DNA from: an uncultured bacterium
GTDB lineage: Bacteria; Patescibacteriota; Minisyncoccia; Phycocordibacterales; CAIZLB01
Assembly: GCA_903848795.1 (NCBI GenBank)
Contig: CAINHC010000016.1
Coordinates: 1-54,708, forward strand
DNA: 54,708 nucleotides
Direction: 5' to 3'
A program made the position numbers and the translations under genes. This document shows, in pieces, positions 28,139-40,007 of the stretch. Each line of letters begins with the position of its first letter. Within the stretch, counting starts at the first letter, position 1. The notes beneath the pieces were generated by a model. It saw only the letters and a program-made list of their open reading frames with translations, was not told the origin of the DNA and ran no database searches.

Positions 28139-28146
28139 AAAACCCC

Positions 28147-28173
28147 AAAAAACCCAGCCCCGCTGGGTTTTTT
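28147..28173 (+). terminator. Intrinsic terminator
   Basis: AAAAAACCCAGC-CCC-GCTGGGTTTTTT. Confidence 0.85.
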
Positions 28174-28220
28174 GCTACCAACTATAATTAGGTCTCAAAT
28201 CCCAAGGGTTTATTGCGTAT

Positions 28221-28326
28221 AAACATATATTCTCATTTCGCCTAAGAGCCTTGCGAGTTGCAACGAGCAGAGGTGATTTTCAGCAGAAAATCGCCGTGCT
28301 CTTAGGGGGAGTGAGAATATGTGTTT
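28221..28326 (+). ncRNA. Structured palindromic element, copy A (unknown family, RNA or DNA)
   Basis: 29-bp outer stem (25 Watson-Crick, 3 G-U, 1 mismatch) enclosing two hairpins, with the core shared with 38412-38545. Confidence 0.6.
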
Positions 28327-28339
28327 GGGTTATTAACCC

Positions 28340-28368
28340 TTGCATTAAGCACCTATATATAGTAGTCT
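28340..28368 (+). promoter_or_regulatory. rpsL promoter
   Basis: TTGCAT-N17-TAGTCT. Confidence 0.6.
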
Positions 28369-28409
28369 ATGACAACTAGTGTATTTTACATACGCTCGTA
28401 AATTTAAGT

Positions 28410-28826
28410 ATGCCAACTTTAAATCAATTAATTAAGAAGAATCGTTCAAAGCCTCGCAAAAAGAGTAAGGCTATTGCCCTTACTCGTGGTTTTAACACAT
28501 TGCAAAACAGACCAATCTTTTATAATTCACCTTTTAAAAGAGGAGTTTGTACAAAGGTTACAACCAAAACACCTAAGAAGCCTAACTCTGCTATCAGAAA
28601 GATCGCCAGAGTTCGTCTTACAAACGGTATAGAAGTTACTGCTTACATCCCAGGAATGGGACACAACCTACAAGAGCACTCCGTGGTACTACTACGTGGT
28701 GGTCGTGTTAAGGACGTTGGTATTAGATATACCGTTGTTCGTGGAAAGCTAGACTGTGCAGGTGTTGAAAAGCGTAGAAAGCAACGTTCAGCTTACGGCG
28801 CAAAGCGCCCAAAGGCAGCTAAGTAA
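28410..28826 (+). CDS. rpsL: 30S ribosomal protein S12
   Basis: [36 protein letters not shown]. Confidence 0.98.
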
Positions 28827-28847
28827 TATTAGCCGTCTGGTTTCGGG

Positions 28848-28966
28848 GGTCTGTTGATTCATACACGTCATGGATCAATCGGCCAAAATGTACACTCGTA
28901 CAAAAAATGATTTATAGAGTAAGTTTTTGACGAAGCGGTCAAAAGTCTGAAAAATGTCTATAAATC
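28848..28966 (+). promoter_or_regulatory. Structured rpsL-rpsG spacer (candidate S7-responsive element)
   Basis: Three hairpins in a 182-nt spacer, including GATTTATAGA/TCTATAAATC enclosing TTTTGAC/GTCAAAA. Confidence 0.4.
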
Positions 28967-29008
28967 GCGTATTATCAATATTATTAAAAATTACGTAACT
29001 TACAGAAA

Positions 29009-29479
29009 ATGCGAAGAAAATTAAAAAAGAAGGTTGTTATAAAACCTGATATAAAATATAAGTCAGAAGTAGTTTCAAAATTTATAAACTATGTTATGTG
29101 GAGTGGTAAGAAAGAGACCGCCTCAAAGATTGTTTATTCATGTTTTGACACTATTAAGGATTTAGCCAAGACAGAAAATCCATTAGAGATTTTTGAAACA
29201 GCCCTTAAAAATGCAGCTCCTCAAGTTGAAGTTAGATCAAGAAGAGTTGGAGGTGCAAACTATCAAGTTCCTAGAGAAGTTAGAGCTGAAAGAAGAGCTT
29301 TCCTATCTATGAAATGGATTATTGACGCAGCTCGCGCAAAAAAGGGAAAGGCTATCCATTTAAAACTAGCAGATGAAATTTTTGCAGCTTCAAAGAATGA
29401 AGGAGAAGCAGTAAGAAAGAAAGAGAATACCCACAAGATGGCAGATGCCAACAAGGCTTTTGCTCACTTTGCTTGGTAA
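29009..29479 (+). CDS. rpsG: 30S ribosomal protein S7
   Basis: [30 protein letters not shown]. Confidence 0.98.
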
Positions 29480-29583
29480 TTCCCCATCACAAACCCCAAG
29501 CAGGTGCGCTCCATAGCTCATTGTTGGGGTTTGTTGATTTATGGTAAACTATATTTATAAAAATAAATTTAAAAAAATAATAT

Positions 29584-31737
29584 ATGCAACGTGATTATCC
29601 ATTAGAGCGAATTAGAAACTTTGGTATCATCGCTCACATTGACGCTGGTAAGACAACAACATCAGAGCGCGTTCTTTACTACACAGGAATGAGCCATAAG
29701 ATTGGTGAAGTTCATGAAGGTGAAGCTGTAACAGACTGGATGGAACAAGAGAAAGAGCGTGGTATTACAATTACTGCCGCTGCTATTACTTGTTTCTGGA
29801 ATCCAACATACATGGGAACTGACAAGTCTCTTATGCATCGTTTCAACATTATCGACACACCAGGGCATGTGGACTTTACAGTTGAGGTTGAAAGATCTCT
29901 AAAAGTTCTTGACGGAGGAGTTGTAGTATTTGATGGAGTTGCCGGAGTTGAAGCTCAATCAGAAACAGTTTGGAGACAAGCTGATAAATATCACGTTCCA
30001 CGTATTTGTTTTATAAACAAGCTAGACAGAATGGGTGCATCATTTGAGAGATCATATCAATCAATCTTGGATAGACTAAACAAGAATGCAATCAGAATGC
30101 AACTTCCAATTGGAGCAGAAGCGGATTTGGATGGAATGATTGATCTTCTAAAGATGAAGGCTTACAAGTTCGAAGGAGATATGGGAAGTACAGTTACAGA
30201 ATATGAAATTCCGGGTGATTTAGTGGATGAAGCTAAGATGAGAAGACAGGAGCTTGTTGAGAAATGTGTAGAGTTCGATGAAGATTTGATGAACAGATAC
30301 CTAGAAGAAGGAGAATCTGCAGTATTCACAATCGATGAACTTAAAGCATCTCTAAGAAAGGGAGTTATTGCAAACAAAGTATTCCCAGTTTTCACAGGTT
30401 CAGCTCTTAAGAATAAAGGAGTTCAATTGGTACTCGATGCCGTTGTTGACTATCTACCATGTCCACTAGATGTTCCTCCAATAAAAGGAATTGATCCAGA
30501 GACAAATGAAGAAATTGAAAGACATGCATCAGATGAAGAGCCTTTTGCAGCACTTGCATTCAAATTGCAAACTGATCCATTCGTAGGACAACTTACATTC
30601 TTCCGTGTATATTCCGGAACAATTGAAGCTGGTTCATACATTTATAATGCAACGACTGGTAACAAAGAGAGACTTGGACGTATTGTTAGACTTCAAGCTA
30701 ACAAGAGAGAGGATGTTAAGAAAGTTTTTGCTGGAGAAATCGCAGCGGCCGTTGGTCTTAAGGAAGCAAAGACATCTCACACTTTCTGTGACGAGGCTCA
30801 TCCAATTTTACTTGACCCTATTAAGTTCGCAGAGCCTGTTGTGTCTCTCCGAATCGAGCCAAAGACAAAAGCTGATCAAGAGAAAATGGGTGTTGCTCTT
30901 AAGAAACTAGGAGATGAAGACCCAACATTTAGAGTTTCTTCAAACACAGAGACCGGAGATACTGTTATCTCAGGAATGGGTGAACTTCACCTTGAAATCA
31001 TGGTTGATAGAATGAAGAGAGAGTTCAATGTTGAGGCTAATGTAGGTGCTCCTCAAGTTGCATACAGAGAGACTATTCTTGGAAGTGCAGAGGCAGAACA
31101 TAAATATGTTAAGCAATCTGGAGGTAAAGGACAATATGGTCACGTTAAGATTATAATTAAGCACCTAGAGCCACTTGTTGAAGGAGCAAAGATTCCTAAG
31201 AATGTTCACAGAACCGCTGATTTTGAATTTATCGACTCAATTAAAGGAGGGGTTATTCCAACAGAATTTATTCCTGCAGTTGAGAAGGGAGTTAAAGAGG
31301 CGATGGAGAGAGGTATCGTTGCTGGATTCCCACTAACAAACGTATCATGTGAACTTACATTCGGTTCATATCATGATGTTGACTCATCAGAAATCGCTTA
31401 CAAGATTGCAGCTTCTCAAGCTTTCCAAGAGGGAGCTAAGCGTGCTCGCCCAGTTATTCTTGAGCCTATAATGAAGGTTGAGGCCCTAACACCAGAGCAA
31501 TTCATGGGTGACGTTACAGGATCACTTTCATCAAAGAGAGGACAAATCGAAGGAATGGACGATAGACTAGGAGGAATCAAGGTAATCAGAGCGATGGTTC
31601 CACTATCAGAAATGTTCGGTTACACAACAGATATCAGATCAATGACACAAGGAAGAGGCTCAGTAACAATGGAATTCGATCATTATGATACAGTTCCAGC
31701 AAACGTGGAGAAGACAATCGTTGAGTCAAGAAAATAA
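29584..31737 (+). CDS. fusA: Elongation factor G
   Basis: [38 protein letters not shown]. Confidence 0.98.
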
Positions 31738-31808
31738 CATTATGGCCATATTGCTTGTGGGGCGTCAGCCCTATTCGGCTAATAAATAAGCTGAAAGCAG
31801 GCGACAAA

Positions 31809-31836
31809 CAAAACACTCCAGAGATGGGGTGTTTTG
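31809..31836 (+). terminator. Terminator after fusA
   Basis: CAAAACACTCCA-GAGA-TGGGGTGTTTTG. Confidence 0.75.
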
Positions 31837-31974
31837 CGTTGGGGCGAATCCTGCCTGCGGCGAGGGGGTTGACGTAAAGCTTAAAACGTGATACCGTTTT
31901 TTATAGAACAGCGAATCGAGTAGTTGTCACAAACCTGAATATCTCAACAATTTAAAATTCAAACCGATACAAGC

Positions 31975-32478
31975 ATGAAAAGAAACGAAGACATCTTATT
32001 GGAAGTATCAAGGGGGTTGGCTGAAGTCAGAAACCTTCTTAAGCAAGTGGATCATGAAAACTCCAGATTGACAGCAGAGATGGGTGAACTTCTGCGGGCC
32101 TGTGAGGAAATTGAAAGCGACCTCCGTCAAAAAAATATCAACTTCATGACATTGCTGGTTGACACAGCGACAAAACTTGCTGGCGCCACTACCTACAAGG
32201 TCGTGCAACACCCAGACAGCAGCGGTCAAAGGTATTACTTTTTCTTCATCAAAGGTTCAACGACTGTCGGGGTGAATGAAAACTACAGCACAGATGTTGT
32301 AGATTATCCTGACTTTGGCTATAAACATTTTGAGTTTATGAGATCTCGACTTGTTACCGAAGTTGTACGGATGTTGAAAAATAAACCTGATGGATTCAGA
32401 CGTTGTACTAAGCTGTTGAATGAGAGTCTGGCGGCGATTTTAAATGCCACTGCTGACACAATCGAAACAGTGAAGTAA
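31975..32478 (+). CDS. Hypothetical protein with N-terminal coiled-coil-like segment
   Basis: 167-aa ORF with its own TTGACG-N17-TACCGT promoter and a terminator at about 32520-32557. Confidence 0.7.
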   Translation: MKRNEDILLEVSRGLAEVRNLLKQVDHENSRLTAEMGELLRACEEIESDLRQKNINFMTLLVDTATKLAGATTYKVVQHPDSSGQRYYFFFIKGSTTVGVNENYSTDVVDYPDFGYKHFEFMRSRLVTEVVRMLKNKPDGFRRCTKLLNESLAAILNATADTIETVK

Positions 32479-32726
32479 TAACAAAACGCACTTCAGCAAA
32501 CACTCAAAACTTAACTGCACCACCCCCACGAAAACCGCTCGTGACAGGGGTGGTTTTCATTTATATAAAACAATTCTTCGAACATCGTCCCAAGTTTGGA
32601 GCTCTCACAATGAACTGGTAAAAGTCATTTTCTGTACCCAGCTCGGATGTTCTGTAGCAGGCCCCTTTTTATAGAATGATAATCACCAATCTTTTTATAT
32701 TTCTCTATATGAGTTAAAATGTCATC

Positions 32727-33236
32727 ATGAACGACTTAAATAATTTAATCTTTGTGGATTGCGAGGCAAATGGTAAGTGTCCAAGTATGGGCAAGCTTAC
32801 TGAATTTGGCGCGGTCGCATATCCCTCAAAAGCTACTTTTCATGGAGTCTTAGTGGAAAGAAAGCCTGATACAGAAAATCCTGAATTCAAAATAGAGACC
32901 GGGATTGTTTTTGATGAAAAAGAAGTATTTGAAAAATTTAACGCATGGTTACAGGAGGTAACAGGTGGAGAAAACCCAAAATTTGTTAGCGATAATCCCG
33001 CTTTTGATTGGCAATGGATCAATGATGGCTTCCATCGAACCATTGGTAACAATCCTTTTGGATATTCTGCCCGTAGGATTGGTGACTTTTATGCTGGCTT
33101 AGTTGGAGATTTTAAGGATGCCTCTTCTTGGAAAAGATTGCGTATAACAAAACATGATCACCATCCCGTGCATGATGCTATGGGTAACGTTGAAGCTTTT
33201 GAGAGATTACTTAAGGGCGAGAGACCTAAGAAGTAA
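32727..33236 (+). CDS. DEDDh 3'-5' exonuclease (DnaQ-like)
   Basis: FVDCE (Exo I), DNPAFDWQWI (Exo II), HHPVHDA (Exo III). Confidence 0.8.
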   Translation: MNDLNNLIFVDCEANGKCPSMGKLTEFGAVAYPSKATFHGVLVERKPDTENPEFKIETGIVFDEKEVFEKFNAWLQEVTGGENPKFVSDNPAFDWQWINDGFHRTIGNNPFGYSARRIGDFYAGLVGDFKDASSWKRLRITKHDHHPVHDAMGNVEAFERLLKGERPKK

Positions 33237-33353
33237 TAAACACCACCCAATTTGGTAAAAAGTACTGTTTTTTGTCAAAAGTACTTGACTTTTAACCCAA
33301 AATGAATATAATATAGGGTATTATTACAAAATAATGTAATATTTAATACAATT

Positions 33354-34610
33354 ATGTTAATAACAAGAATTAAAGCCAGTAATTTCTATGGTATAAAAGA
33401 CCCTTTAGAGGTAATTTTTACTGAGGGTGGAGAGAAGGAGAAAAATGGTTATGTAAATTTTGGAAAAGAGAGGATTTCTCTCATCGCTGGTTTTTATGGT
33501 GCCAACGCTTCAGGCAAAAGTACTGTTTTAAATGTTATAGATATCATTATACGTATAATGCTTTCAAGACAGCAGGATTTTATTTTTGATCCTAATGGCA
33601 TAAAACAAGAGACAATAATATTGGTTCCCAACTATCAAAATGATATGAAAATAAAACCCTCTGTAATGGAGATGGATTTTGTTATTAACAACAATAAATA
33701 CAACTATTTAATTTCTATCATAAATGAAGGCAAAGAAATTTCTGAAGAAGTTTTATATAAAAACAGTAAAAAGGTTTTTGATAGGAAAAAATCTACAATT
33801 TCATTTGACCCGAAAATATCAAAAAAGATAGGAAATATAGCAAATAATATTGTGGCTCCCAAGAAGTCTTCATTTCTTTCTGTTCTTTTAGATGATAGCT
33901 CGGATGTCTCCGTATTTGGAAATCTTAAAGAGGAGGTAGGTATTTCTGAGCTTAAACAAATTAAAAATAAACTTTGTTTTATAACTGACAAGAGATCAGT
34001 ACAAATGGGACAAAATAACATACGAGGTATTTTTGCTCTTGCGGTTAATTATGTAAATAATATTAATCCATCTGTAGAGCAACAGTTAAATGTTGTTAAC
34101 TCGGTAGTAAAATACTTTGAACCTTCATTTAAAAAACTTAATATTGTAAAAAAGAATGAAAATTTTATTGAGTACAGCGCTCAGTATGATAATTTCTACA
34201 AAGACCTTCCTGTGACTGAACTTTCTGCTGGAACCAGAGAGCTTATATCTTATATTAGTGACATTCTTAGAATTTTAAAAAATGGTGGTATTGTCGTTTA
34301 CGATGAAACAAGTAAGTATTATCATCCAGATATGGAAATTGCAATTCTTAATTTGTTTAAAGACAAAGATATAAACAAAAATAATGCTCAAATATTCTTT
34401 TCTTCGCACAATGCTGAGACTTTTGATTTATTACAGAACAATCAAGCTCATATATTGGAAAAGAAGGATGACAATATAATTATTACAAAAGTATCTGATT
34501 ATGCTGACATTAAAGAAAGAGATAATATTAAAAGGGTGTATCGTTTAGGCTCTTTTGGTGGAGTTCCAGATACTATTGATTTTAGTAGAATAATTAATAA
34601 TTTGCTTTAA
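33354..34610 (+). CDS. ABC-type (AAA_21/RloA-like) ATPase
   Basis: Walker A GANASGKS, signature LSAGTRE, Walker B VVYDE..KYYHP, H-loop FSSHN. Confidence 0.85.
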   Translation: MLITRIKASNFYGIKDPLEVIFTEGGEKEKNGYVNFGKERISLIAGFYGANASGKSTVLNVIDIIIRIMLSRQQDFIFDPNGIKQETIILVPNYQNDMKIKPSVMEMDFVINNNKYNYLISIINEGKEISEEVLYKNSKKVFDRKKSTISFDPKISKKIGNIANNIVAPKKSSFLSVLLDDSSDVSVFGNLKEEVGISELKQIKNKLCFITDKRSVQMGQNNIRGIFALAVNYVNNINPSVEQQLNVVNSVVKYFEPSFKKLNIVKKNENFIEYSAQYDNFYKDLPVTELSAGTRELISYISDILRILKNGGIVVYDETSKYYHPDMEIAILNLFKDKDINKNNAQIFFSSHNAETFDLLQNNQAHILEKKDDNIIITKVSDYADIKERDNIKRVYRLGSFGGVPDTIDFSRIINNLL

Positions 34611-34614
34611 ATCT

Positions 34615-35187
34615 ATGGGGAAGAAAAGTTTTGATGTTTATTATTTAATTATAAGTGAAGGTACTACTGAATTTATTATTTTTGCATATTTAACAAAAAA
34701 TAAGTTTAGAAAGCTCTTTGAAGAATCAAATATTAAATTTAGCAACAAGACTGAAGTTATAAAAGATGGAAACCAGATAGTATCTCAGGGCAACTTAGGT
34801 GGAGCGGGTCACATCGGAGACTTTAAGGCAAAATACAGCCTAATAAAAAATAAATATTCTGATCAAAAATTATTTTTCTTATTAGATAAAGATCTGGATG
34901 ATTCTTTAAAAATAGAAAATGCTATTATAGCAGGCGGAGATATTGTTCAGTTTATAGAATATAATTCTGAGTATCTATTATTAAAGTTTTCAGGTAAAAA
35001 TCCGAAAACCCCTTCTTGTTTCAATGGCATGAAGGAATTTAGAGATTATTCTAAGATTGAATTTGAAAAAGAATTTGGCAAAAATGCATCTGATTTAAAG
35101 GATGTAGATCTGGAATTAATATTTGGTGATGTTAGTGAGAAAGAAATAAGACTGGCTTTTGCAGAGATATTTTCTACTTTGTCTTAA
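34615..35187 (+). CDS. RloB-like TOPRIM-fold protein
   Basis: YLIISEGTTE and FLLDKD (TOPRIM Glu and DxD), 4 nt downstream of the ATPase. Confidence 0.65.
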   Translation: MGKKSFDVYYLIISEGTTEFIIFAYLTKNKFRKLFEESNIKFSNKTEVIKDGNQIVSQGNLGGAGHIGDFKAKYSLIKNKYSDQKLFFLLDKDLDDSLKIENAIIAGGDIVQFIEYNSEYLLLKFSGKNPKTPSCFNGMKEFRDYSKIEFEKEFGKNASDLKDVDLELIFGDVSEKEIRLAFAEIFSTLS

Positions 35188-35206
35188 ATAATCAGACTTC
35201 ATTAAG

Positions 35207-35250
35207 TCTATGTGTCAAGGGTGTGGACAATTTGTACTCACCCTTGACAC
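35207..35250. terminator. Hairpin between convergent genes
   Basis: GTGTCAAGGGTG ... CACCCTTGACAC, 12-bp inverted repeat. Confidence 0.6.
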
Positions 35251-35280
35251 ACCAACAAAAGTATATTTTTGACCAGTAGA

Positions 35281-35739
35281 CTATTTTTTGATAAACAACC
35301 TCTCATAACCATTCTCATTAAACTCATCGTAATATTTTTTATCAAATTCATACACTGGCACACCAAGATAACCCCCATGTTCTTCTATAAGTTTGTCAGC
35401 TTCTTCTTTTGAATATTTATTATGAAAATCTCTTTTCCCTAATTCATGTGCCAAGCCTTCAAATAATTGTTGTTCGTCATACAATGCTAGGTCATCAAGA
35501 ATTTTCTCGTAATAATCTTCATCTAAATGTGGGTCTTTTGCCCCACAGTCACATAAATTCTTCTCAAAATCAAAATCTTTGGCATATTGTAAGAGATATT
35601 TTTGGACTTCTTCAATTTCATTGGTGTCCTTTTTGTATTTATCATCGACAAAATCAGACATTGGACCGTATATAAAAGAATTTGCTTCCAAAGATTTTAC
35701 TATTATTTCGTATTGTTTTTTTGTTATATTTATTTTCAT
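35281..35739 (-). CDS. Hypothetical acidic protein
   Basis: 152-aa ORF co-oriented with the SWIM and Fic genes. Confidence 0.7.
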   Translation of the reverse strand: MKINITKKQYEIIVKSLEANSFIYGPMSDFVDDKYKKDTNEIEEVQKYLLQYAKDFDFEKNLCDCGAKDPHLDEDYYEKILDDLALYDEQQLFEGLAHELGKRDFHNKYSKEEADKLIEEHGGYLGVPVYEFDKKYYDEFNENGYERLFIKK

Positions 35740-35763
35740 ATTTTCAGTATTAATTCTTTAATA

Positions 35764-36543
35764 TTAATTAATAATATCACCGCTCTTCAAACCAAATCCA
35801 CTTTCCCAATCAAATATCTGGCCTTTAGGTAATTTCTTTTTAATGAATGGTTTAATATTTGGATCGAAACTTACAAACAGATTGAGTACTTCTACAAGCT
35901 TTAGCATCAAATCTCCTATGGTGCCATCTGAGTCATCAATGCCTCCACATGCTTTTCTATCAAGTCTCTTTAAGGTATTTATACAAATCATTACAGATTT
36001 TTCACAAACCGGAAGTTTAGAAAGAGCTAGAAGAATGAATCGAGAACCCCGCACTAGTGAGTCCTGATATTGAAACCATTTTGAAGATGGACCACTAAAT
36101 CTTTTGAGAAAAGACATACCTTTATTTATTTCTGATTTAGCTTTATCTAATTCATTTTGTGTTGCGTCTCTAACTATTCCTGAGCAGACGGCTTGATCAA
36201 CGGGGTGCTTTATAGATTCTGTATCTTTAGGTCTATATTTGTAAACCACTGCAATAGCAAGCGCAATCATATGTTTACACAATTCATTTTTTTGACCAAC
36301 GTAACAATCACAAATACCTCTATCATATGCTTCTATAGACACACCTACATGATATTCATGGGTTCCGGATACTATCGCTCTAAATCCTGAAAAGGAATCA
36401 CTAATTTTTTTGACTGCACCTTTTTCATATAATTTAAGACCTTTATTAAATTCAGAATCTCCAACACCTAATTGTATATCAGGTATGGTGTATAAAACTA
36501 ATGATCTGGCGTTTAATTGTGCTAAAAAAAGTTTGTTTCTCAT
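35764..36543 (-). CDS. SWIM zinc-finger protein
   Basis: ICDCYVGQKNELCKHMIAL (CxC...CxH). Confidence 0.8.
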   Translation of the reverse strand: MRNKLFLAQLNARSLVLYTIPDIQLGVGDSEFNKGLKLYEKGAVKKISDSFSGFRAIVSGTHEYHVGVSIEAYDRGICDCYVGQKNELCKHMIALAIAVVYKYRPKDTESIKHPVDQAVCSGIVRDATQNELDKAKSEINKGMSFLKRFSGPSSKWFQYQDSLVRGSRFILLALSKLPVCEKSVMICINTLKRLDRKACGGIDDSDGTIGDLMLKLVEVLNLFVSFDPNIKPFIKKKLPKGQIFDWESGFGLKSGDIIN

Positions 36544-36584
36544 ATAATTAAATCTTGTGAAAAAATCTTATAAATAAATATATT

Positions 36585-37457
36585 CTATTCCCCAATCTTC
36601 CAAACCCCCTTCTCTAAAAAGGCCTCAATAGTCTGACGCCCTGCTTTATTGATAAGATTTGAGTGTGATATTTTATTGCTCTTTGCAAAATCTGAAAGCG
36701 TGACAATATTTTTGCCTTCTAGGTATGCCAAACGTTTATGATAGCTGTTTGTAAGTGCTTTACCGACAATTTCTTCCATAATAGTGGTTGTACCCTTTTC
36801 GTTAAACTCTTTAAAGGCACTGTAATATTTTTTTCTATCAATAAATTTAATGTTTATTGGAACAAAACCCTCTCGTATTAGTAGGTAATTATTAATGACA
36901 CGTCCAATTCTTCCGTTACCATCATTAAAGGGGTGGAGGGTTTCAAAGGCAAGATGTATTTTTGCGATTCTCTTAATTATATTTTCATGACTTGAAGCAT
37001 TGTATTCCGAAAGCATTTTTTCCACCCCTCCCTTTATTTCTTGTGGTGCTGGTGCAATATGGTTTCCAACTCTAACATATTCATTGCCCTCTCGAAATCT
37101 GCCAGCAACTTCATCCCAGATATTTGATAAGAGCATTTTATGAAGGGATAAAATGATATCAATTTTAAGCTCGCTCTCTTTAGCTTTTTTTTCAATGTAC
37201 TCCACTACTCTAGCAAGGTTCTTTGCTTCAAATATCTCTCGCTCCGTTATATATCTGTCCAAATCTATCTGGAGAAGTATTTTCTCAGTTTCTTCAAGGG
37301 AGAGTGTGCTATTCTCTATGGCGTTGGAGTTATAGACCTGTTCAGAAATTTCCACTTCAGATATAAGCTTAATCAAAGCATCCTTTCCAGTGGATGATTT
37401 ATAATACCTCTCCCTGAGGTCCTTAATCTTATTGTATGTTGTAGATATATTAGCCAT
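36585..37457 (-). CDS. Fic-domain protein with short C-terminal HTH
   Basis: HPFNDGNGRIGR, inhibitory motif SNAIEN, C-terminal TLSDFAKSNKISHSNLINKA. Confidence 0.9.
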   Translation of the reverse strand: MANISTTYNKIKDLRERYYKSSTGKDALIKLISEVEISEQVYNSNAIENSTLSLEETEKILLQIDLDRYITEREIFEAKNLARVVEYIEKKAKESELKIDIILSLHKMLLSNIWDEVAGRFREGNEYVRVGNHIAPAPQEIKGGVEKMLSEYNASSHENIIKRIAKIHLAFETLHPFNDGNGRIGRVINNYLLIREGFVPINIKFIDRKKYYSAFKEFNEKGTTTIMEEIVGKALTNSYHKRLAYLEGKNIVTLSDFAKSNKISHSNLINKAGRQTIEAFLEKGVWKIGE

Positions 37458-37469
37458 AATGTACTATAC

Positions 37470-37544
37470 ATTATAGGTATTTTCACGATTATGTCAATCA
37501 AAATCGTGAAAAACATGAAAAAACGACAGATTTTCACGATTATG
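37470..37544 (-). promoter_or_regulatory. fic promoter with a three-box operator
   Basis: TTGACA-N16-TATAAT (37497-37470), TTTTCACGATT at 37480-37490 and 37531-37541, inverted copy at 37502-37512. Confidence 0.65.
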
Positions 37545-37599
37545 GGTATTATTGTGGCAACAAAACCATCCAGGTTGATACTTAAATTGCTGATATTTT

Positions 37600-37641
37600 A
37601 ACTGTAGTGGTCAAAAAGTACGTTTTTTGACCACTACAGTT
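37600..37641. repeat. Perfect 18-bp inverted repeat with 6-nt spacer
   Basis: AACTGTAGTGGTCAAAAA-GTACGT-TTTTTGACCACTACAGTT. Confidence 0.9.
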
Positions 37642-37829
37642 GTTATAATGGTCAAAAATAGGAAGGTGATGGTCAATAATTGCGTGACTTTTTCAAGAGG
37701 ACGTAGTAATCTATAAAAAGTTTGACATCGGCGTTTTAAATTCACAATTAAGTCAAATCACCTCTTCCAATGTATATTTTGCATTTTGTCGAGGGGTGAA
37801 ATGTACTTTGGAAACAAAACACTAGTAAA

Positions 37830-38285
37830 ATGTCAGCGAAAGTTCAAAAAATGTATATCTGTGTCGGGAAGGAAGGCAAAGGCTTTGTTGCGAAGGTTAC
37901 CTCCTTCATCAGCAGCTTGGCTCGTGAGTGTTACTCTGAGCAACATGTCAGCGGTGGAGACAGTGGGGATTTGTACGAGGAAGTCGCAACCGTTAGGTCT
38001 TACACCATGGAAAATGGCTGGATACAGCTCTATACCGTTACTGACGACAGCGTTAACGGCTATGGAGAATGTGTTTCTGTTCTCTGGGAGCCTCCGGATG
38101 AAATCGAGCCAAGGTTCAGCTCGTGGCCGAAATTTCTCAAGTTTCTGGATAAGAATGATTTTGTATCGAAGCACAAGTCTCTCAAGGCACGTCCGGACGG
38201 GTGGAAATCATTTGCAAGTTACTTGGATGAGCACTTCGTACGTCCAGACAAAGCTCCATTTACGACAAAAGACGGCAAGGGTTAA
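37830..38285 (+). CDS. Hypothetical protein
   Basis: 151-aa ORF followed by a terminator-like hairpin at about 38330-38360. The overlapping 37786 ORF is judged spurious. Confidence 0.65.
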   Translation: MSAKVQKMYICVGKEGKGFVAKVTSFISSLARECYSEQHVSGGDSGDLYEEVATVRSYTMENGWIQLYTVTDDSVNGYGECVSVLWEPPDEIEPRFSSWPKFLKFLDKNDFVSKHKSLKARPDGWKSFASYLDEHFVRPDKAPFTTKDGKG

Positions 38286-38411
38286 TACCCACAGGTTATT
38301 GAGTTATCTTTCTCTCCTAAAAAAGACACAACCCCATGGCTAGTTGCCAGTGGGGTTTTGCGATTTTACTCCCTAGGATCCATATCCCGAAGGTGGCGTC
38401 CTGTATTACCA

Positions 38412-38545
38412 CCAAATCCCTAATCCCATGCCCTTTAAGAGACTTGCGAACTGCAGTGAGCAGATGATTTCCGTTCCCCATAAGGAAATCACATTTTCAG
38501 CAGAAAACTGACGTGCTCTTAAGGGGCATGAGACTTGGGATTTGG
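38412..38545 (+). ncRNA. Structured palindromic element, copy B
   Basis: 30-bp outer stem (26 Watson-Crick, 1 G-U, 3 mismatches), same core as copy A plus one extra hairpin. Confidence 0.6.
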
Positions 38546-38547
38546 AG

Positions 38548-38575
38548 TTGACATTACGCCACCTTCTGATATTAT
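38548..38575 (+). promoter_or_regulatory. tuf promoter
   Basis: TTGACA-N16-TATTAT with extended TG. Confidence 0.7.
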
Positions 38576-38603
38576 CCAGTATGACGCCAACTGGCGGTTT
38601 TTT

Positions 38604-38786
38604 ATCCCAACTCTTCTTTTTGATTTAAGGCAAGTATTAAAGAATCAAACATAATAAAGCTATTTACAAGAAGAAGCACTGGGGATGAAATTTAAGAAAA
38701 TTTATTAATTTTAATTTTTATTAATTAGTAAATATTGGGCTTGCGGAGATATCCGCGCCTTGTGGAGATATCCATAAATAAAGCCC
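38604..38786 (+). promoter_or_regulatory. Structured tuf leader with twin GGA-GATA-TCC hairpins
   Basis: GGGCTT/AAGCCC closes GCGGAGATATCCGC and GTGGAGATATCCAT, with a long imperfect hairpin at 38604-38686. Confidence 0.5.
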
Positions 38787-38813: not shown

Positions 38814-40007
38814 ATGGCAGTAGAAGCTTTTGATCGTTCAAAACCTCACTTAAACGTAGGTACAATTGGTCACGTTGATCACGGAAAGACTACCTTAACA
38901 GCCGCAATCCTTAATGTTCTTCACAGAGCAGGTATGCAGGCGACAATTAAGGATGTTAGTGAAATTGATAAGGCTCCAGAAGAGAAGGCTCGTGGAATTA
39001 CAATTTCATTGTCACACAGTGAATACACAACAAATGTAAGACACTATGCTCACATTGATGCCCCAGGTCACGCCGACTACATCAAGAACATGATTACTGG
39101 TGCCGCTCAAATGGACGGTGCTATCCTAGTTGTTGCTGCAACAGACGGACCAATGCCACAAACACGTGAGCACGTTCTTCTTGCAAAGCAAGTTGGAGTT
39201 CCAAAGATAATCGTATTCATGAACAAGTGTGACATGGTAGATGACGCAGACATGCTTGATCTAGTTGAGGCAGAAATCAGAGAATTGCTAGAAAAGAATG
39301 GATTTGACGCAGATGCTCCAATTATCAGAGGTTCAGCGCTTAAGGCACTTGAAGCACCTGACAATACAGATCAATGGTCAAAGAAAGTTCTAGAACTTGC
39401 TGACGCTCTTGATACATATCTTCCACAACCTGTGAGAGAGACTGACAAGCCATTCCTTATGCCTATTGAGGACATCTTCTCAATTGAAGGAAGAGGAACA
39501 GTGGTAACAGGAAAGATTGAAAAGGGTATGATTAAGATTGGTGAAGAAGTAGAAATCGTTGGAATCAAGGATACTCAAAAGACAGTTGTTACAGGAATCG
39601 AAATGTTCAACAAGCAACTAACAGAGGGTATGGCTGGAGACAACGCTGGTATACTTCTCCGATCTGTTAAGAAAGATGATCTTACAAGAGGTCAAGTTCT
39701 TTCAAAGCCAGGAACAGTAAAGCCACACACAGATTTTGAAGCAGAAGTCTATATCCTTAAGAAGGAAGAAGGCGGTCGACACACTCCATTCTTCTCAGGT
39801 TACAAACCACAGTTCTACGTACGTACAACTGACGTTACAGGAGAGGTTACATTAAAAGAAGGTGTAGACATGGTTATGCCAGGTGACACAGTTACATTCA
39901 AAGTTAAATTGGTAGCCCCAATCGCGCTTGAAGATAATACAAGATTCGCTATTCGCGAGGGAGGTAGAACTGTTGGAGCTGGAGTTGTAACTAAAATCGT
40001 AGCCTAA
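38814..40007 (+). CDS. tuf: Elongation factor Tu
   Basis: [37 protein letters not shown]. Confidence 0.98.

Follow-up and report, generated by a model that had tools for sequence, protein, structure and literature searches.

A gene-less, structure-defined hairpin repeat, often located next to housekeeping promoters, in a genus of Patescibacteriota

Integron attC sites are defined by the fold of one strand, occur in tandem cassette arrays beside intI and carry R'' and R' boxes. Palindrome-associated transposable elements (PATEs) are derivatives of IS200/IS605 that lack an open reading frame (ORF), are made of hairpins and are mobilized as single-stranded DNA with strand polarity. Repetitive extragenic palindromic (REP) sequences and REPINs are hairpin-forming intergenic repeats in which the stem, composed of two inverted REPs, is conserved and the loop is variable, and which have a dedicated REP-associated tyrosine transposase (RAYT) (PMC3116915, PMC3337134). 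The Correia elements of Neisseria (Correia repeat enclosed elements [CREE], or NEMIS) have conserved terminal inverted repeats, and their own ends make promoters (PMC2649163). Template switching at imperfect inverted repeats is an established mutational route by which self-copying of the nascent strand corrects such repeats towards perfect palindromes (PMC7202029). We analyzed a stretch of 54,708 nt (the window) on contig CAINHC010000016.1 of assembly GCA_903848795.1, a 1.02-Mb genome (G000) from an uncultured freshwater bacterium of the Patescibacteriota, or candidate phyla radiation (CPR) (Minisyncoccia; Phycocordibacterales; CAIZLB01), and compared it with six further species of the genus (G001 to G006). 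The window holds two copies, A and B, of a palindromic element, located on the upstream side of rpsL and of tuf, respectively. On balance, we lean towards the view that they are members of a dispersed, gene-less, structure-defined repeat of this CPR genus, similar to REPs or miniature inverted-repeat transposable elements (MITEs), that acts as a folded single strand, probably of DNA.

The unit of the family is ~105 to 135 nt long and consists of a ~30-bp stem topped by a conserved three-way junction. Helix P2 follows the pattern UUGC-GA-NN-[UGCA]-NN-GA-GCAG, in which a U.G pair closes the helix, a G.A tandem follows and the loop is UGCA. Helix P3 is ~10 bp long and has an AGCA loop, and an optional 29-nt module converts the three-way into a four-way junction. 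Single-strand fold energies were set against those of shuffled sequences and expressed as z scores. Copy A folds at -71.5 kcal/mol, compared with -36.2 +/- 4.0 kcal/mol in shuffles (z -8.9); for copy B, the energy is -83.6 kcal/mol and the z score -8.4. The core shared by the two copies is TAAGAG-n-CTTGCGA-(GTTGCAAC in A, ACTGCAGT in B)-GAGCAGA ... TTTTC-AGCA-GAAAA ... CGTGCTCTTA. The features of the two copies are as follows.

28203 to 28342, forward strand: copy A, whole hairpin, with the outermost pairing between CAAGGGTT (28203-28210) and AACCCTTG (28335-28342); from the fold
28232 to 28315, forward strand: copy A, conserved 84-nt unit comprising the 18-bp inner stem P1 and the three-way junction; model R1, 93.4 bits, E ~1e-21
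28251 to 28270, forward strand: copy A, helix P2, UUGC-GA-GU-[UGCA]-AC-GA-GCAG, with U.G closing pair and tandem G.A/A.G; from pair counts
28272 to 28295, forward strand: copy A, helix P3, GGTGATTTTC-[AGCA]-GAAAATCGCC; from the fold and pair counts
About 38382 to 38572, forward strand: copy B, whole nested hairpin; from the fold and the comparison of congeners with and without the element
38425 to 38532, forward strand: copy B, conserved unit in its four-way variant; model R1, 68.3 bits
38444 to 38463, forward strand: copy B, helix P2, with apex AC-[UGCA]-GU; from the sequence and pair counts
38465 to 38491, forward strand: copy B, extra arm TGATTTCC-GTTCCCCATAA-GGAAATCA, part of a ~29-nt module that replaces 6 nt of the P3 5' strand
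38494 to 38507, forward strand: copy B, apical P3, TTTTC-[AGCA]-GAAAA; from the sequence
38548 to 38575, forward strand: promoter of the host, TTGACA-16 nt-TATTAT with TG, located within the copy B 3' arm; 11/12 matches, and empty sites
28146 to 28174, bidirectional: intrinsic terminator of the upstream binding-protein gene, outside the element; from the terminator scan

An earlier note on this stretch had located both copies and their core correctly, although both hairpins extend further out than it had drawn them. The swap of GT/AC for AC/GT beside the tandem G.A/A.G was recovered as described, as was the additional arm of copy B. Three of the four deviations in the copy A stem had been read as wobbles, and we found three T.G wobbles and one G.G mismatch. 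The same note had placed a terminator before each copy, which holds for copy A (28146-28174), whereas the hairpin 5' of copy B has a T tail of only 4 and was not flagged by the terminator scan. It had also placed the end of each copy just before a -35 box; this is correct for copy B (TTGACA at 38548), whereas downstream of copy A there is nothing more than a -35-like TTGCAT (28340), and a consensus -10 is missing at the distance where it would be expected.

The two copies belong to a larger family. A 22-nt core pattern occurred 11 times in G000, with 0 occurrences in a reversed control. A covariance model (R1), built from element copies and matching the 84-nt conserved unit, was used to search G000, its congeners, the order-level neighbourhood and a phylum sample. 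The model identified 12 copies in G000 at E <=1e-14, the next match having E ~1, and all six congeners carried the element in 2 to 12 copies each. The element had been taken for a two-copy one, which is true of the window only. The 12 copies have near-perfect stems of 25 to 35 bp that differ in sequence, and a fourth arm is present in 3 of them. The distribution is patchy over the order, with the element detected in 19/41 genomes of the order-level neighbourhood, and close to zero in the rest of the phylum, where 6/401 evenly sampled genomes had a match, 4 of these 6 (G000 included) being from the same order. A search of 185,579 species genomes with the exact core pattern returned the same freshwater-lake metagenome-assembled genomes together with single matches in unrelated phyla, the latter approximately at chance level by our own estimate (~17 expected for 18 fixed bases in 596 Gb). 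As the earlier note had suspected, no known family matches: Rfam 15 gave no match at gathering score across the whole window, and at E up to 10 the copies were overlapped only by chance-level matches to unrelated models. Our literature search found no description of the family. Hammerhead, twister-sister, signal recognition particle (SRP), 6S and Y RNAs were considered by eye and dropped, as their conserved motifs are missing. A phage or plasmid origin was likewise rejected, with no blastn match in phage and plasmid collections and the core pattern absent from viral contigs.

Paralogues within the genus are diverged, with a best stem identity of 0.82 and a median of 0.42 for the stem against 0.67 for the core. 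The ~29-nt module (TGATTTCCGTTCCCCATAAGGAAATCAC) shows little or no variation among copies from unrelated loci of four or five genomes (window 38465-38493; G000:C20:490-518; loci L046, L048, L049, L040 and L050). At the murG site it is present in the G006 copy and missing from the orthologous G000 copy. This presence and absence, together with the near identity at unrelated loci, indicates that the module moves between copies, by conversion or insertion. The idea that the extra arm is an independent mini-repeat was discarded, since the module was found solely inside the element. One genome of another family-level lineage, G026, carries ~12 homogeneous copies, outer stem sequences included, a population that looks like a recent burst. 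In this subfamily (loci L084-L093 and L017) the stem has a conserved outer part, AATTACGAAA/TTTCGTAATT, and a conserved inner part, TTCC-GA-GCAGAGA / TCTGC-GA-GGAA, which contains a second tandem G.A; a short hypervariable segment lies between the two parts.

Pairing in the stems was quantified in the 12 copies of G000 and in 51 copies from 17 genomes, with shuffles and slid partners as controls. In the smaller set, 94.5% of cells were paired, compared with 71% in shuffles and 42-46% with slid partners, and 26/35 pairs were double-changed. The larger set gave 94.4%, compared with 66% and 39-57%, and 32/35 double-changed pairs; additional homologs thus preserve the pairings, which the earlier note had made a test of its reading. 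Nine of the 10 P3 pairs were double-changed across the family. The basal pair of P2 is U.G in 48/51 copies, and the two apical P2 pairs alternate between GU/AC and AC/GU. Covariation in the stems is therefore far beyond chance. The pairs also have a polarity: the inner 17 pairs of P1 contain 38 G.T/T.G against 9 A.C/C.A. The element strand folds better than its complement in 48/58 copies (mean -56.0 versus -52.0 kcal/mol), and the model score is ~100 bits for the element strand but ~31 bits for its complement. The wobble asymmetry, folding energies and model scores together indicate that the folding strand is always the same one, whether it is RNA or single-stranded DNA.

Comparison of sister species revealed filled and empty versions of the same sites. 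Upstream of rpsL, the element was present in G000 and G006 only, and these are different members, the G006 copy having the other P2 type and a different stem. In G001 the same upstream gene and terminator are followed directly by the promoter region, with no element, and in G002 to G005 the upstream genes are others and the element is absent. At the tuf-side site, G000, G001, G003 and G004 carry the element; in G002 and G005 the site is empty, and homology starts exactly at the -35 TTGACA. Other sites were compared by searching with a concatenated query of their flanks. The hsp20 site shows a clean ~106-nt indel (TTCCAAGG...CCTTGGAA) inside conserved flanks, filled by different members in G000 and G003 and empty in G004, G006 and G001. 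The rplS site is empty in G001 and G004, and both typA-region sites are empty in G004. In the last species the site corresponding to C6:25476 has the promoter alone, and the secA site retains a 3'-half remnant of the element. Different members within conserved flanks at four sites point to turnover rather than gradual drift. The repeat is thus multicopy, differs between sister species in the sites that it occupies, decays by deletion and is replaced by other members.

Promoter positions were counted for 44 copies of the genus, with distances measured from the end of the model match. A sense promoter lies within 110 nt downstream of the 3' side in 24/44 copies, compared with 6, 7 and 9 in three control orientations. 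In 17 of those 24, and at 11/14 distinct sites, the -10 box starts at +36 to +43 after the 84-nt unit. The -35 box of these strong host promoters is thereby separated from the unit by ~15 nt and from the end of the 30-bp stem by only a few bases. Genes served by the promoters include rpsL, the tuf/S10 operon, typA, rplS, rplY, rpsA, infB, secA, secG, murG and clpB. A quarter of the copies are tail-to-tail with tRNA or protein genes, among them rplU, fusA, hpf, tRNA-Ala and a duplicated 3' end of tRNA-Val. Enrichment beside translation-related and other heavily expressed genes is real, although the link is not exclusive; by our own rough estimate, 8/12 copies would have such a neighbour where about a quarter would be expected. 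We infer that the element does not serve as a dedicated regulator of the rpsL and tuf operons. The proposal of a device dedicated to two translation operons does not stand, as copies also precede secA, secG, murG, clpB and a protease gene and lie behind tRNAs, rplU, fusA and hpf, and sister species lack the element at both sites in question. That proposal was to fall if dozens of randomly placed copies came to light. Only half of that picture was found, since placement is promoter-proximal and enriched beside translation-related genes, and so non-random. In relatives of the family in other genera, promoter association was seen in just 6/32 copies, without fixed spacing. The possibility that the element brings the promoter with it was ruled out, because promoters persist unchanged at the empty sites of sister species.

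The outer stem is host DNA in inverted duplicate. Beyond the 18-bp inner stem, ~27 of the 58 copies used for the strand-energy and outer-extension counts show a significant further palindrome of 30 to 70 nt. Where empty sites exist, they identify the right arm as ancestral sequence of the host, of which the left arm is an inverted duplicate. The outer arms of copy B are accordingly an inverted, diverged duplicate of the downstream promoter, with GAAGGTGGCGT (38389-38399) pairing with ACGCCACCTTC (38556-38566); the left flank GGATCCATATCCCGAAGGTGGGGGTTTGT mirrors TTGACAAACCCCCACCTTCTGATATTATCC, and the matching promoter stands alone in G002 and G005. Inverted promoter duplicates are likewise found at C6:25476, at secA (promoter plus start region) and at the rpsA promoter in four species; in about half of the copies the stem is lengthened by such a duplicate, in a decaying state. 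Mismatches in the outer zone look neutral (32 G.T, 20 A.C and many others), in contrast to the inner stem. At 5/8 empty sites the inverted duplicate is absent (z <=0.7), and the other three give weak signals (z 1.8-3.1). Since the outer stem is an inverted host duplicate with neutral-looking mismatches, part of the apparent covariation is duplication and not selection on pairing. Selection on structure, as claimed previously, is thus upheld to the extent that pairing is kept through many compensatory changes, whereas some of the covariation in the outer stem comes from host DNA duplicated in inverted orientation. At site B, joint changes in the promoter spacer and in its mirror separate G000 from G004 (GGTGGCGT/ACGCCACC versus GGTGGGGG/CCCCCACC), and the hexamers are left unpaired. 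Separately, between the element and the secG promoter (G000:C25:3944-3985), the stem end occurs in a triple tandem repeat (GAGGGGGTAT x3).

Set against the described classes, the element shares with attC sites the fold of one strand, a variable stem sequence with kept structure and an apical part that is sometimes branched. Unlike them, it occurs as scattered singletons on 9 contigs beside housekeeping genes, and R-box-like ends were not seen; no search for intI was made. Unlike an IS200/IS605 PATE, its hairpins are unrelated to the end hairpins of the resident IS200-type element, and no tetranucleotide target was found. Like REPs and REPINs, it forms short, gene-less, intergenic and lineage-persistent hairpins that are thought to act as folded single strands and whose population size varies among related genomes. 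The folded strand of fixed polarity that characterizes them is also present, as the wobble and folding counts indirectly indicate, and would fit RNA equally. In contrast to REPINs, the apical junction is conserved and the stem rewritten, the arms being the variable part. No RAYT gene is flanked by the element, there is no conserved 5' tetranucleotide and no near-identical copies occur in the genus, and the usual location is on the upstream side of promoters, not at the ends of operons. It resembles CREE in being palindromic, intergenic, ~100 to 150 bp long and promoter-adjacent with a conserved core; CREE affect or create promoters and have been mobilized between strains (PMC2649163). However, unlike CREE and classical MITEs, it has private ends, outer stems that differ among copies and no target-site duplication. 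Its promoter is the host's own, which is still there at empty sites and is duplicated backwards into the stem. Of the defining features of REPINs, Correia elements and attC sites, none is present apart from single-strand polarity. Quasipalindrome template switching, a process and not an element family, could account for stems that are perfect yet change fast and for palindromes that grow outwards; the events described in PMC7202029 involve few bases, whereas 30 to 70 nt would have to be copied here.

Taken together, these observations suggest how a dispersed, single-strand-acting repeat might operate. The element would act and be propagated as a folded single strand, most likely of DNA that becomes exposed during replication or that extrudes as a cruciform behind promoters with heavy transcription. 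Its junction core would be the module recognized by a putative trans-acting factor, and the inner stem would be held by selection on the fold. The outer stem would be made and re-perfected by hairpin-primed fold-back (template-switch) synthesis, which would copy the flanking promoter backwards and so mimic covariation. DNA is likelier than RNA because the copies lie between terminators and promoters, show no consistent upstream promoter of their own and in a quarter of cases are transcribable only as antisense. Several points weigh against this reading. The wobble asymmetry is compatible with RNA as much as with single-stranded DNA. A replication-strand rule was not supported, GC skew agreeing for only 9/12 copies, which is not significant. 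Five junction sets, including the clean hsp20 indel, gave no target-site duplication and no target motif. The absence of a near-identical paralogue pair within the genus means that recent transposition is not demonstrated there. A partner enzyme was not found, both resident Y1 genes having their own unrelated hairpins, and Y1 and reverse-transcriptase genes co-occur only weakly with the element. G004 has an outer inverted repeat at its typA site even though the element is missing there, so insertion into a pre-existing palindrome, or excision, is also possible. Finally, the fixed spacing and the enrichment at translation, secretion and envelope genes could reflect host function rather than targeting. 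The constant promoter distance could result from targeting, for example at forks stalled at promoter-bound polymerase, or from host selection on a cruciform or insulator.

The latter possibility leads to an alternative that we regard as unlikely, namely that the element is a host-serving DNA element upstream of promoters that is kept by selection, mobility being secondary. It might act as a platform of cruciform or bent DNA for proteins such as those of the HU type, as a sink for the negative supercoils that heavy transcription generates or as an insulator against read-through into strong housekeeping promoters. The fixed spacing at 11/14 distinct sites, the mostly highly expressed housekeeping neighbours (clpB aside, the genes listed above) and the joint change of spacer and mirror at site B are all consistent with such a role. 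However, the same promoters run element-free in sister species, relatives in other genera lack the promoter association and fixed spacing, a quarter of copies are tail-to-tail with other genes, and remnants represent loss without replacement. Quite unlikely, in our assessment, is a functional RNA family, made up of cis- or trans-acting noncoding RNAs (such as processing sites, protein sponges, terminators or insulators) that would have the three-way junction as their active part and be transcribed by read-through or from their own promoter. Such a family would account for the strong covariation in all helices, for the conservation of the U.G pair, the tandem G.A and both tetraloops, for the wobble bias and energy asymmetry favouring one strand and for the A-runs and T-runs that flank the stem in many copies. 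Yet copies positioned after terminators and before promoters occupy the least transcribed part of the spacer, a sense promoter upstream of the element is found at background level (6/44 copies), and at convergent genes only the non-folding antisense strand is transcribable. Most copies also lack a U-tract after the stem end; many hold A-runs and T-runs within the stem, and the terminator scan flags only the separate upstream terminator at copy A. In addition, nothing in Rfam matches and the stems have no targets elsewhere in the genome. A guide-RNA role was dropped for this last reason, the stems matching nothing else in the genome beyond chance 11- to 15-mers. The earlier note had left three options for the nature of the element; the single-stranded DNA or REP-like mobile hairpin and the promoter-proximal DNA element provide the best fit, while a free-standing noncoding RNA gene is unsupported, as there is no consistent upstream sense promoter and the copies at convergent genes are transcribable only as antisense.

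A further alternative is a strict REPIN- or PATE-type mechanism, with cut-and-paste of single-stranded DNA by a resident HUH Y1 transposase. The search for a RAYT or an IS200/IS605 TnpA suggested earlier was productive, as G000 encodes a RAYT-like Y1 gene (contig C52) and an IS200-type TnpA (contig C6), each with its own unrelated hairpins. The IS200-type element (G000:C6:46600-47160) carries a 149-amino-acid Y1 transposase (C6:46699) and the hairpins CCCTGTGGTCTCTGCCACAGGG on the left and ACCCTGCGGTCTCTGCCGCAGGGT on the right; its end hairpins, CCCTG(T/C)GGTCTCTGCC(A/G)CAGGG at C6:46605 and 47134, are unrelated to P1, P2 and P3. The RAYT-like gene (G000:C52:213-563) is followed by a different mini-hairpin (GGGGCCTGACCCC), and none of the 12 copies is on C52. 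The two Y1_Tnp genes, the fixed folding strand and the distribution among congeners, in which the copy-rich genomes have Y1 (G000 and G003 with 12 copies each, G002 with 7 and G006 with 6) and the two-copy G004 and G005 lack it, would suit mobilization by Y1. Against this, the hairpins of both enzymes are unlike the core, the copy-rich genomes have no single Y1 type in common, G016 (5 copies) and G017 (6 copies) lack a Y1 gene, and Y1 was present in 9/19 genomes with the element compared with 5/22 without it. Given also the missing 5' tetranucleotide and the missing near-identical copy population in the genus, we consider this mechanism very improbable. A reverse-transcriptase partner was rejected, as G002 has 7 copies and no such gene. 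Improbable too, though worth setting out, is the idea that the junction core is the heart of a promoter-targeting insertion mechanism without a transposase of its own. A replication fork halted by RNA polymerase that occupies a strong promoter would change templates to a folded copy of the element, the element would be copied in ~15 nt upstream of the -35 box, and snap-back on the new hairpin would write the promoter backwards into the stem. Rebuilding of the stem at each insertion would explain the private perfect stems, the fixed spacing, the enrichment at the most transcribed genes and the lack of target duplications and of a partner gene. In a variant, the palindrome could be retained because cruciform extrusion under transcription-driven supercoiling tunes promoters.

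Although few genomes are as compact as those of the CPR, G000 keeps a dozen gene-less palindromes of 100 to 190 nt against its core translation, secretion and envelope promoters. Because the family is absent from Rfam and from the literature found, it will be missed or miscalled as a riboswitch, leader or noncoding RNA in CPR annotation. It also provides a caution for RNA discovery, as covariation by itself is no proof of selection on structure: the inner helices behave as selected, and the outer stem is a host duplicate. Fixed promoter spacing combined with backward promoter duplicates is unusual among bacterial small repeats and offers a way to ask how palindromes arise, grow and are tolerated beside highly transcribed genes and whether they alter promoter output. 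The elements may in addition matter for metagenome assembly.

Several minor observations were made at and around the copies. The RAYT-like open frame extends to ~250 amino acids (G000:C52:196-830) and is followed by the mini-hairpin GCACGGGGCCTGACCCC, which recurs elsewhere in the genome (G000:C6:28520-28545) and may be the cognate REP-like repeat of that gene. Five ORFs with a reverse-transcriptase domain are present in G000 (C2:2038-2646, C22:3409, C32:4286, C48:770 and C49:826), one with an in-frame TGA. At G000:C1:61305-61720, tRNA-Val(TAC) is followed by a ~200-nt insert that ends in a repeat of the last 19 nt of the tRNA (GAGTCCCTTATCGCCCACA), and a four-way copy of the element lies directly after this repeated end, tail-to-tail with it. 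This copy and the tRNA-Ala copy on C8 have common private flanks (ATGAACGAAAAAC ... GTTTTGAGTGAAT), which suggests that a subfamily linked to tRNA genes has a conserved unit of larger size.

Downstream of copy B, the strong promoter at 38548-38575 is followed within ~10 nt by the hairpin CGCC-AACT-GGCG (38585-38596) and a T6 run (38598-38603), and ~200 nt of AT-rich sequence separates the T6 run from the tuf ATG at 38814. The promoter and small hairpin are kept in all congeners, with a compensatory loop/stem change (GACGCCAACTGGCGG versus AACGCCTTTTGGCGG). This arrangement may represent a leader similar to an attenuator, or a very small transcript, and not a promoter that serves tuf directly. 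Just upstream of the TATATAAT box and the tuf start, the 10-bp palindrome GGAGATATCC occurs twice (38745-38754 and 38764-38773), which looks like a putative operator pair. Finally, a spacer motif, (T)TCGCCAAAA or TTTCCAAAAAA, located between the -35 and the extended -10, is common to the rplY, rpsA, infB, clpB and C6:25476 promoters (loci L058, L051, L060 and L061; G000:C37:27255-27285; G000:C6:25590-25620) and may represent an additional promoter element, or a site for some factor, in the genus.

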